In this document: one piece after another, positions 34,806 through 36,473 of the stretch
Numbering within the stretch: the first letter of the stretch is position 1
Layout: the number at the start of each line of letters is the position of its first letter
Assembly: GCF_029227855.1 (NCBI RefSeq)
Contig: NZ_CP074356.1
Length of the DNA: 64,000 bases
Strand: one strand, 5' to 3'
Origin: Escherichia coli
GTDB taxonomy: Bacteria > Pseudomonadota > Gammaproteobacteria > Enterobacterales > Enterobacteriaceae
Position numbers and translations under genes: made by a program
Notes under the pieces: model-generated
The model's input: only the letters and a program-made list of their open reading frames with translations
Told to the model about the DNA's origin: nothing
Databases searched by the model: none

Positions 34806-36473
34806 ATGAATATAAAGACGCTTAACGTCAGCCTTTTGTCTTTTTCTATTATTACAGCATTGTTTCCGTTGAACGCGTTGGCAACAAAATTAACCATTGA
34901 GCAGCGCCTTGAACTGCTTGAAAATGAATTGTCGCAAAATAAACAAGAGCTGAGAGCAACACAGAATGAACTGGGGGTATATAAATCCCGACTTTCGACC
35001 TTACAAAAAAGTATTACGGAAAATAAATACAAATCAGCCTCACTTGCTGAAATATCAGCGACATCTCCCGTCGCTGATAACATCAAAAATGAAAACGGTG
35101 AACAGAACTCGTCTGCCGCAGCGCATACTATAAATGGATCGCAGCAAGTTGCCGTTATTGAAAGTAAAGGCGACAAAACCACTATCGAAAGCGTGACCCT
35201 GAAAGATATCAGTAAATATATAAAGGATGATATTGGGTTCAGCTATCAGGGGTACTTCCGCTCAGGCTGGGGTACCGGAAATCATGGCTCACCACAAACT
35301 TATGCAGCGGGTTCTCTGGGACGTTTTGGTAACGAGATGAGCGGTTGGTTTGACTTAACCTTAAATCAGCGTGTTTATAATCAGGACGGTAAAACGGCAA
35401 ATGCGGTCGTTACCTATGATGGCAACGTAGGTGAGCAGTATAACGATGCCTGGTTTGGTGACAGTGCCAATGAAAATATCATGCAGTTCAGTGATATTTA
35501 TCTGACAACGCGAGGTTTTTTACCCTTCGCGCCAGAGGCAGACTTCTGGGTAGGCAAACATAAACTCCCGCAATATGAGATCCAAATGCTGGACTGGAAA
35601 ACCTTAACCACGGATGTCGCTGCGGGTGTGGGGATTGAAAACTGGGCACTTGGTGTAGGGCTGTTTGATATGTCCTTAAGCCGTGATGATGTCGATGTTT
35701 ACTCTCGTGATTTTACGCGTACCAGTCAGATGAATACCAATTCTGTGGATGTTCGTTATCGCAATATCCCGTTATGGGATGATGCAACATTATCATTAAT
35801 GGCTAAATATTCCGCACCAAATAAAACGGATCAACAACAAGATAATGAAAATGACGACAGTTATTTTGAAATGAAAGATAGCTGGATGCTGACTTCTGTT
35901 TTACGGCAAAACCTGCAACGCGATACGTTTAATGAATTTACGTTACAGGTTGCCAATAATTCCTATGCCAGCAGTTTTGCCAGTTTCTCAGATGCCAGTA
36001 ACACGATGGCGCATGGTCGCTATTACTATGGTGACCATACCAATGGGATCGCCTGGCGTTTAATCTCTCAGGGCGAGATGTATCTTACTGACAATATTAT
36101 TATGGCTAACGCGCTTGTCTATTCTCATGGCGAAGATGTTTATAGTTATGAAAGTGGCGCTCATAGTGATTTTGACAGTATTCGCACCGTAGTAAGACCG
36201 GCCTGGATCTGGAATACATGGAATCAGACGGGGCTTGAATTAGGCTGGTTTAAGCAACAGAACAAAACACAGCAGGGTGTAACACTAAATGAATCGGCTT
36301 ATAAAACGACACTCTGGCATGCATTGAAAGTGGGTGAAAGCATTTTAGGTTCACGACCAGAAATTCGCTTCTATGGAACGTATATCAATATTCTGGATAA
36401 CGAATTATCGAATTTTAAGTTTAATGAGAACAGCAAAGACGAGTTTATGGCCGGCATCCAGGCGGAAGTCTGA
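34806..36473 (+). CDS. Sugar-specific outer membrane porin (LamB/ScrY-like) with N-terminal coiled-coil extension
   Basis: 555 aa; signal peptide, then a heptad-like segment, then an aromatic-rich beta-barrel ending in Phe/Val. Confidence 0.7.

Follow-up and report, generated by a model that had tools for sequence, protein, structure and literature searches.

Positions 34,806 to 36,473 of the 64,000-nucleotide stretch analysed here (the window; Escherichia coli, assembly GCF_029227855.1, contig NZ_CP074356.1) encode a sugar porin, and the locus raises the question of what kind of porin this is and what the heptad-patterned segment ahead of its barrel represents. The answer we favour, with a probability of roughly 85%, is that it is a BglH-type porin of the LamB family (here called BgcH), forming the outer-membrane part of an accessory bgc-type beta-glucoside phosphotransferase system (PTS) operon inserted between eamA and marB. 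The heptad helix, spanning residues 28-74, is real and has been confirmed. The domain that it forms is already catalogued as PF11471, and the finding is real but ordinary and already known. An earlier note on this DNA had described a heptad-like segment between the signal peptide and the barrel of a sugar porin lying inside a PTS island. Both observations hold, as the peptide quoted there corresponds to residues 27-67, just past the signal peptide, and the porin matches PF02264 and has PTS IIB, IIC and IIA genes as neighbours.

The family of the porin is set by its barrel. The match to PF02264 reaches 268.9 bits against a cutoff of 25.1 (E = 1.8e-79) and covers 376 of the 378 profile positions. 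In an AlphaFold2 (AF2) model, built with a 47-sequence alignment, the predicted barrel is confident from residue 146 and has a predicted local distance difference test (pLDDT) score mostly above 90. Foldseek on this predicted barrel retrieved maltoporins (1MPR at 1.1e-24, 1MAL at 7e-23) and the sucrose porin ScrY (1A0T at 5e-16), with target TM-scores (template modelling scores) of 0.75-0.78 against maltoporin and ScrY, and a family-profile search of the PDB found maltoporin at 2e-129 and ScrY at 5e-77. A phmmer search of the PDB with the single porin sequence had given nothing at E<=1, and is superseded by the profile and fold searches. By sequence match and by modelled maltoporin-type fold, the protein is thus a member of the LamB/sugar porin family.

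The open reading frame (ORF) starts with an ATG that has AAGGA upstream, and its coordinates are identical to those of a RefSeq 'carbohydrate porin' coding sequence in the clinical E. coli isolate JNEC-KY178. The layout of the gene and its product is as follows.

34806..36473, + strand: gene for a bgcH-type carbohydrate porin, with 555 codons and a TGA stop (557 codons in the usual allele); from the ORF list and the sequence.
34806..34883, + strand: signal peptide, residues 1-26; basic n-region, hydrophobic core and AXA motif, read by eye from the sequence.
34887..35027, + strand: heptad-repeat helix, residues 28-74, about 6.5 heptads, a putative periplasmic coiled coil; heptad statistics, conservation, AF2 and PF11471.
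34893-34973, + strand: Sugarporin_N match, residues 30-56; Pfam PF11471.
35028..35195, + strand: low-complexity linker, residues 75-130, predicted disordered; AF2 pLDDT 27-42 over residues 71-130.
35196..35237, + strand: pre-barrel helix, residues 131-144; AF2 helix 132-143 and a conserved motif.
35244..36470, + strand: LamB-type beta-barrel, residues 147-555; Pfam PF02264, AF2, Foldseek and profile search.
36471..36479, + strand: TGA TGG TAA, a premature stop at codon 556 in place of TGG; alignment with strain 7/2 and K-12 bglH.

The signal peptide aligns with those of BglH, ScrY and LamB, and signal peptidase I is predicted from the motif to cleave at A24-L25-A26|T27. The helix that follows has K28, L35, L42, L49, L56, L63 and I70 at the a positions of the heptad, and I31, L38, N45, T52, Y59, L66 and N73 at the d positions. 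Within residues 29-70, 9 of the 12 a and d positions are occupied by L, I, V or M, a heptad score equalled by only 0.02-0.3% of residue shuffles (p 0.0002-0.003, varying with the segment bounds). A polar, proline-free 42-mer scoring this high is found in just 3 of the 48 ORFs of at least 150 amino acids in the window. Conservation was measured over 71 distinct N-termini of 557-amino-acid orthologs from Escherichia, Citrobacter, Salmonella, Enterobacter and Kluyvera. Mean column entropy is low at positions a (0.46), d (0.27) and e (0.49) and higher at b (0.99), c (1.32) and f (1.68). At d, the polar or aromatic residues N45, T52 and Y59 show little or no variation. This low entropy at a and d, together with the conserved polar d residues, is the pattern of a buried coiled-coil core. 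The AF2 model has a single uninterrupted helix of 44 residues (31-74; block pLDDT 64-86), followed by a disordered stretch. PF11471 (Sugarporin_N, 'maltoporin periplasmic N-terminal extension') matches directly after the signal peptide.

Between helix and barrel, the linker varies in sequence among orthologs, and the AF2 model places a low-confidence beta-hairpin at residues 115-130. The pre-barrel helix which follows carries the motif [TS]LxDxSK[YF][IV]KD[DE]IGF, common to BgcH orthologs, BglH and the more distant BglH-like porins P0126, P0129, P0132 and P0133; sequence comparison did not find it in ScrY or LamB.

The closest characterised relative among the porins compared is BglH (YieC), the cryptic aryl-beta-glucoside porin of the K-12 bgl operon. 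It is 53% identical to BgcH over 539 columns, N-terminus included, and has the same architecture of signal peptide, Sugarporin_N helix, linker, pre-barrel motif and LamB-type barrel. In both proteins the heptad helix starts with LT[IV]EQRLELLE and the pre-barrel motif reads TLKDxSKxxKDxIGF, and both genes have a beta-glucoside PTS and a phospho-beta-glucosidase as neighbours. The loci themselves differ: the bgl operon is found near phoU and works with the BglG antiterminator and an IIABC permease, whereas the bgcH locus, between eamA and marB, has a GntR regulator and separate IIB, IIC and IIA proteins of the cellobiose family. Given the 53% identity, the other locus and the other type of regulator, the sequences identify BgcH as a paralogue of BglH, not an orthologue. 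The optimal pairwise alignment of the two helices contains a gap of exactly 7 residues, i.e. one heptad (LSQNKQE), as would fit a structure bound to keep its heptad register. The BgcH coiled coil is longer than that of BglH, by this extra heptad and by 2-3 more heptads past a shared YK motif, and the BglH linker is about 20 residues shorter. BglH also keeps the C-terminal WW, unlike the BgcH allele of this window.

The maltoporin LamB shares barrel family and fold with BgcH at 24-27% identity. The equivalents of LamB Y6, R8, R33 and D116 are conserved in BgcH, and the normal BgcH allele shares the C-terminal WW. LamB has no PF11471 match and no N-terminal extension, its barrel beginning three residues past the signal peptide. 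ScrY, the sucrose porin of the scr regulon on pUR400-type plasmids (PDB 1A0S, 1A0T and 1OH2), is 20-23% identical to BgcH. Like BgcH, it combines a LamB-family barrel with a PF11471 heptad segment right after the signal peptide; its extension, at about 70 residues, is shorter than the roughly 120 of BgcH, it has no pre-barrel TLKD helix, and its neighbours are the sucrose genes scrK, scrA, scrB and scrR. The barrel motif starts at residue 147 in BgcH, 127 in BglH, 97 in ScrY and 28 in LamB, so that on sequence the stalk of BgcH is the longest of the four porins compared.

These comparisons bear on the earlier suggestion that a coiled-coil extension marks ScrY rather than LamB or BglH. The first half stands, as ScrY has PF11471 and LamB lacks it, and alignment with ScrY, LamB and BglH revealed no LamB-type N-terminus in BgcH, which would have spoken against the extension had it been there. 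The second half does not stand, because BglH has the same motif and K-12 BglH in fact scores highest against PF11471 (45.6 bits, compared with 40.7 for ScrY and 29.2 for BgcH). As BgcH is BglH-like at 53% identity including the N-terminus, the extension is what would be expected of a BglH-type porin and is no ScrY-like oddity. The wider family agrees with this. A search of 1.84 billion representative proteins supplied a set of 47 family members; PF11471 is present in 14 of these, every one of them with a long N-terminal extension. The long extensions belong to BglH/BgcH-like and ScrY-like proteins, while in LamB-like members (410-455 amino acids) only a few residues separate the signal peptide from the barrel. 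Across the sequences compared, the coiled-coil extension is a trait common to the BglH/BgcH and ScrY lineages and not a peculiarity of ScrY.

Beyond this family, DcaP of Acinetobacter and FapF of Pseudomonas are described as following the same design, a trimeric barrel whose N-termini form a coiled coil in the periplasm (PMC6173795). Their barrels belong to other families, DcaP (6EUS) being a distant fold match to the BgcH model, and no sequence relationship was found between their helices and that of BgcH.

The genomic setting supplies the second part of the answer. The porin is the fourth of five + strand genes, in the order IIB, IIC, IIA, porin and glycoside hydrolase family 1 (GH1) enzyme, and a regulator gene is divergent from them.

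31766..32464, - strand: divergent GntR/UTRA regulator (bgcR-type); Pfam GntR and UTRA, RefSeq.
32663-32974, + strand: PTS IIB, lactose/cellobiose family; Pfam PTS_IIB, RefSeq mapping.
33089-34411, + strand: PTS IIC, lactose/cellobiose family; Pfam PTS_EIIC, RefSeq mapping.
34439-34750, + strand: PTS IIA, lactose/cellobiose family; Pfam PTS_IIA, RefSeq mapping.
34754..34781, + strand: intercistronic stem-loop UUCCUCCAGUG...CUGGAGGAA, placed after the stop codon of IIA and ahead of the ribosome-binding site of the porin gene.
36504..37943, + strand: GH1 6-phospho-beta-glucosidase (bgcA-type), last gene of the operon; Pfam Glyco_hydro_1 at 7e-130, RefSeq.

These six genes form an island of about 6.2 kb between eamA and marB. 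K-12 has no island, its eamA-marB spacer being 30 bp long. The guanine-plus-cytosine (GC) content of positions 31722-38000 is 38-46%, compared with about 50% on either side, in the flanks with eamA and marRA. The low GC content and the 30-bp spacer of K-12 would fit AT-rich accessory DNA gained by horizontal transfer. Of 5426 complete E. coli genomes, 2553 (about 47%) carry the porin gene. The stem-loop folds as RNA at -20.3 kcal/mol (z = -3.0; 3 of 200 shuffles were equally stable). As no T-run follows it, it may be an intercistronic element of mRNA stability or processing and not a terminator. A scan of the island for promoter and terminator consensus sequences gave no excess over shuffles (17 vs 16.6 and 6 vs 5.5, respectively).

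A bgc beta-glucoside operon was reportedly characterised by Neelakanta, Sankar and Schnetz in 2009, in Appl Environ Microbiol 75:2284, and we take its fifth gene to be a porin named bgcH. A later paper describes bgc as a five-gene operon with BgcE, BgcF, BgcI and BgcA, and with a GntR-type regulator BgcR, which serves the use of cellobiose, arbutin and salicin (PMC3585215). In gene content and order the island matches that description, and a citing paper counts bgc among four E. coli beta-glucoside operons. The equation of the porin with bgcH rests on gene content and on the fifth bgc gene being a porin. Almost nothing relevant was found in the literature on bgcH, bgcA and bgcR or on the N-terminal extension of BglH.

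If BgcH is the outer-membrane part of this operon, it would be exported via Sec and cut after A26. By analogy with LamB, ScrY and BglH, it would insert into the outer membrane as a trimer, through which beta-glucosides such as cellobiose, arbutin and salicin would diffuse into the periplasm. Their uptake and phosphorylation would fall to the IIB/IIC/IIA (BgcEFI-type) permease, and the GH1 enzyme would hydrolyse the phosphorylated product. Again by analogy with ScrY, the three N-terminal helices of the trimer would come together on the periplasmic side in a parallel three-stranded coiled coil, and the resulting stalk may stabilise the trimer, prolong the sugar slide with a stretch of low affinity, or both. 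For ScrY itself, a trimeric coiled coil in the periplasm is reported to stabilise the porin (PMC6173795, citing Dumas et al., 2000). ScrY without its 70 N-terminal residues is reported to resemble LamB in function (Schulein et al., 1995, cited in PMC4753733).

Several observations weigh against this picture. The substrate specificity is drawn from the operon context and from the published description of bgc. The PF11471 match is marginal, at 29.2 bits only 3.5 bits over the cutoff of 25.7, and spans 27 of the profile's 31 positions (1-27). Polar or aromatic residues (N45, T52, Y59 and N73) fill four of the seven d positions and G57 lies inside the helix, so the core is not of the textbook hydrophobic type. 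An AF2 pseudo-trimer, in which three copies of residues 27-78 were joined by 33-residue GGS linkers and modelled with 9 orthologous rows, gave three helices at pLDDT 82-92 with a predicted TM-score (pTM) of 0.60, and the linking raised helix pLDDT only modestly. Foldseek of this pseudo-trimer against the PDB returned nothing below E = 0.5. No solved sugar-porin structure contains this coiled coil, every ScrY chain in the PDB being 413 residues long. The sugar slide gives a mixed result. In LamB the greasy-slide residues are Y6, Y41, W74, F227, W358 and W420. Aromatic residues are found in BgcH at the equivalents of Y6 (Y150), Y41 (W181) and F227 (F375), and non-aromatic ones at those of W74 (D214) and W358 (L514). 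Either the slide is only partly conserved or the alignment, which at 24-27% identity is uncertain in loops, is imprecise at these two positions.

The remaining slide residue leads to the alternative that survives best, namely that the porin of this strain is effectively a pseudogene, with its coiled coil left as a relic. At issue here is how well the allele functions, and not what the domain is. The last codons read GTC TGA TGG TAA in this strain, as opposed to GTC TGG TGG TAA in strain 7/2 and the other sequences examined; the end of K-12 bglH is ATC TGG TGG TAA. The protein consequently ends in QAEV, lacking the C-terminal aromatic residues (WW/WF) that close the last strand in the LamB family. 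All orthologs retrieved are 557 amino acids long and end in AEVWW, so this lack concerns the allele and not the gene family. Each of the 46 other family members in the comparison has an aromatic residue at the C-terminus or no more than 2 residues from it, and most end in WW or WF. The lost W556 aligns with LamB W420, and the terminal aromatic residue (the position of W557) is one on which outer-membrane barrels generally depend to assemble efficiently. If the change is disabling, it would act by blocking recognition by the beta-barrel assembly machinery (BAM) and by removing a slide residue.

The earlier note had missed this premature TGA and the removal of Trp-Trp. Of 2447 complete genomes matching the stretch, 1 has the exact 61-mer that surrounds the stop. 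That genome, JNEC-KY178, is 100% identical to the window over 25 kb and therefore lends the allele no independent support. The exact 555-amino-acid protein recurs, however, on at least 10 contigs that stem from different sequencing runs and assemblies and are independent of one another, which rules out a sequencing error in a single assembly. W556* is a rare but real allele.

How far this allele is impaired is less clear-cut. The persistence of the allele on those contigs tells against an inactive gene, as does the extent of the loss, which is two residues only, in an otherwise intact ORF and operon. Porins without the terminal aromatic residue are slowed in their assembly and do not lose it altogether, and UGA is the leakiest of the stop codons, misread by tRNA-Trp; both points likewise count against a pseudogene. 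One might speculate that such read-through, which would restore the normal sequence, partly rescues the allele. Elsewhere the porin gene has been hit repeatedly. It is split by the insertion sequence (IS) IS1B in E. coli NZ_CP032145.1 and NZ_CP139953.1, and the same protein cluster has truncated forms, among them one of 408 amino acids from Shigella boydii (P0275), which together suggest recurrent inactivation. IS insertions are reported to be likewise frequent in the bglHIK-yieJI region, which holds the paralogue bglH (PMC2646131). On balance the 555-amino-acid protein probably assembles or works poorly, and the allele is probably hypomorphic; outright loss of function is a serious contender to which we give somewhat less than even odds.

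A quite different doubt is whether the N-terminal helix oligomerises at all. It could stay on its own as a stable single helix, or serve as a flexible periplasmic tether, with incidental heptad spacing, acting for example as a spacer or as a contact to peptidoglycan or another protein. The polar d residues N45, T52 and N73, as well as Y59 and G57, count in favour of this. The segment is highly charged and polar, and neither the pseudo-trimer model nor its fold search demonstrated trimer geometry. Yet the a and d positions are the best conserved ones, and the near-invariance of N45, T52 and Y59 is expected of buried layers and not of an exposed single helix. The a positions 35, 42, 49, 56 and 63 are all Leu, and the parent barrel family is trimeric, so that three copies are brought together in any case. 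The segment is also homologous to that of ScrY, which is reported as a trimeric coiled coil (PMC6173795). We therefore regard a non-oligomeric helix as improbable.

That BgcH is itself a sucrose porin of the ScrY type, or that its N-terminus came from ScrY, is scarcely credible. Both proteins have PF11471 and a common T-[IV]-E-x-R-L-x-x-L-E start, but BgcH is only 20-23% identical to ScrY as against 53-54% to BglH, the N-terminus is shared with BglH, whose Pfam score is higher, and the neighbours are a cellobiose-family PTS and a GH1 phospho-beta-glucosidase and not scrK, scrA, scrB and scrR. ScrY orthology was accordingly rejected on low identity and different gene context. A chance heptad pattern in a low-complexity leader, for which the shortness of the segment and its richness in L, E, Q and K might be held responsible, is just as hard to credit and was rejected on the shuffles and the rarity of the pattern among window ORFs, on conservation that tracks the heptad positions, on the curated Pfam match and on the AF2 helix.

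Elsewhere in the window, an apparent prophage remnant occupies positions 14261-18813, recognised from translations only. An 811-amino-acid ORF (14261-16696) reads as tail-fibre-like, with long Ala/Ser/Thr-rich repeats of the KTSETNAK type. A 234-amino-acid ORF (16987-17691) has a heptad-like N-terminus of its own in translation, and the translation of a 196-amino-acid ORF on the - strand (18223-18813) resembles a Pin/Hin-type DNA invertase.

As a discovery the BglH-type porin of the bgc-type operon carries little weight, since the domain is catalogued, the gene annotated and widespread, and the type of operon known. The useful outcome is a correction: the extension is common to the BglH/BgcH and ScrY lineages, with a conserved heptad core and a length that varies in heptad units. 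What value remains lies in the truncated allele and in the function and structure of periplasmic stalks. Porins of the BglH/BgcH type may have a three-part periplasmic module not shared by ScrY (a coiled coil with the invariant polar core layers N45, T52 and Y59, a disordered tether of 50-60 residues and a conserved amphipathic pre-barrel helix), and this may conceivably do more than stabilise the trimer, for example through gating on the periplasmic side, through sugar or ion binding in the polar layers, or by reaching peptidoglycan or the PTS permease. Separately, W556* might be a natural hypomorph dependent on UGA read-through by tRNA-Trp. Both ideas are long shots, and we know of no description of such a role for the module. 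BgcH, whose extension is longer than those of the other E. coli examples compared, is a reasonable test case for periplasmic stalks, and the loss of two residues in this strain is a small natural experiment on the need for a C-terminal aromatic residue in barrel assembly and sugar passage.

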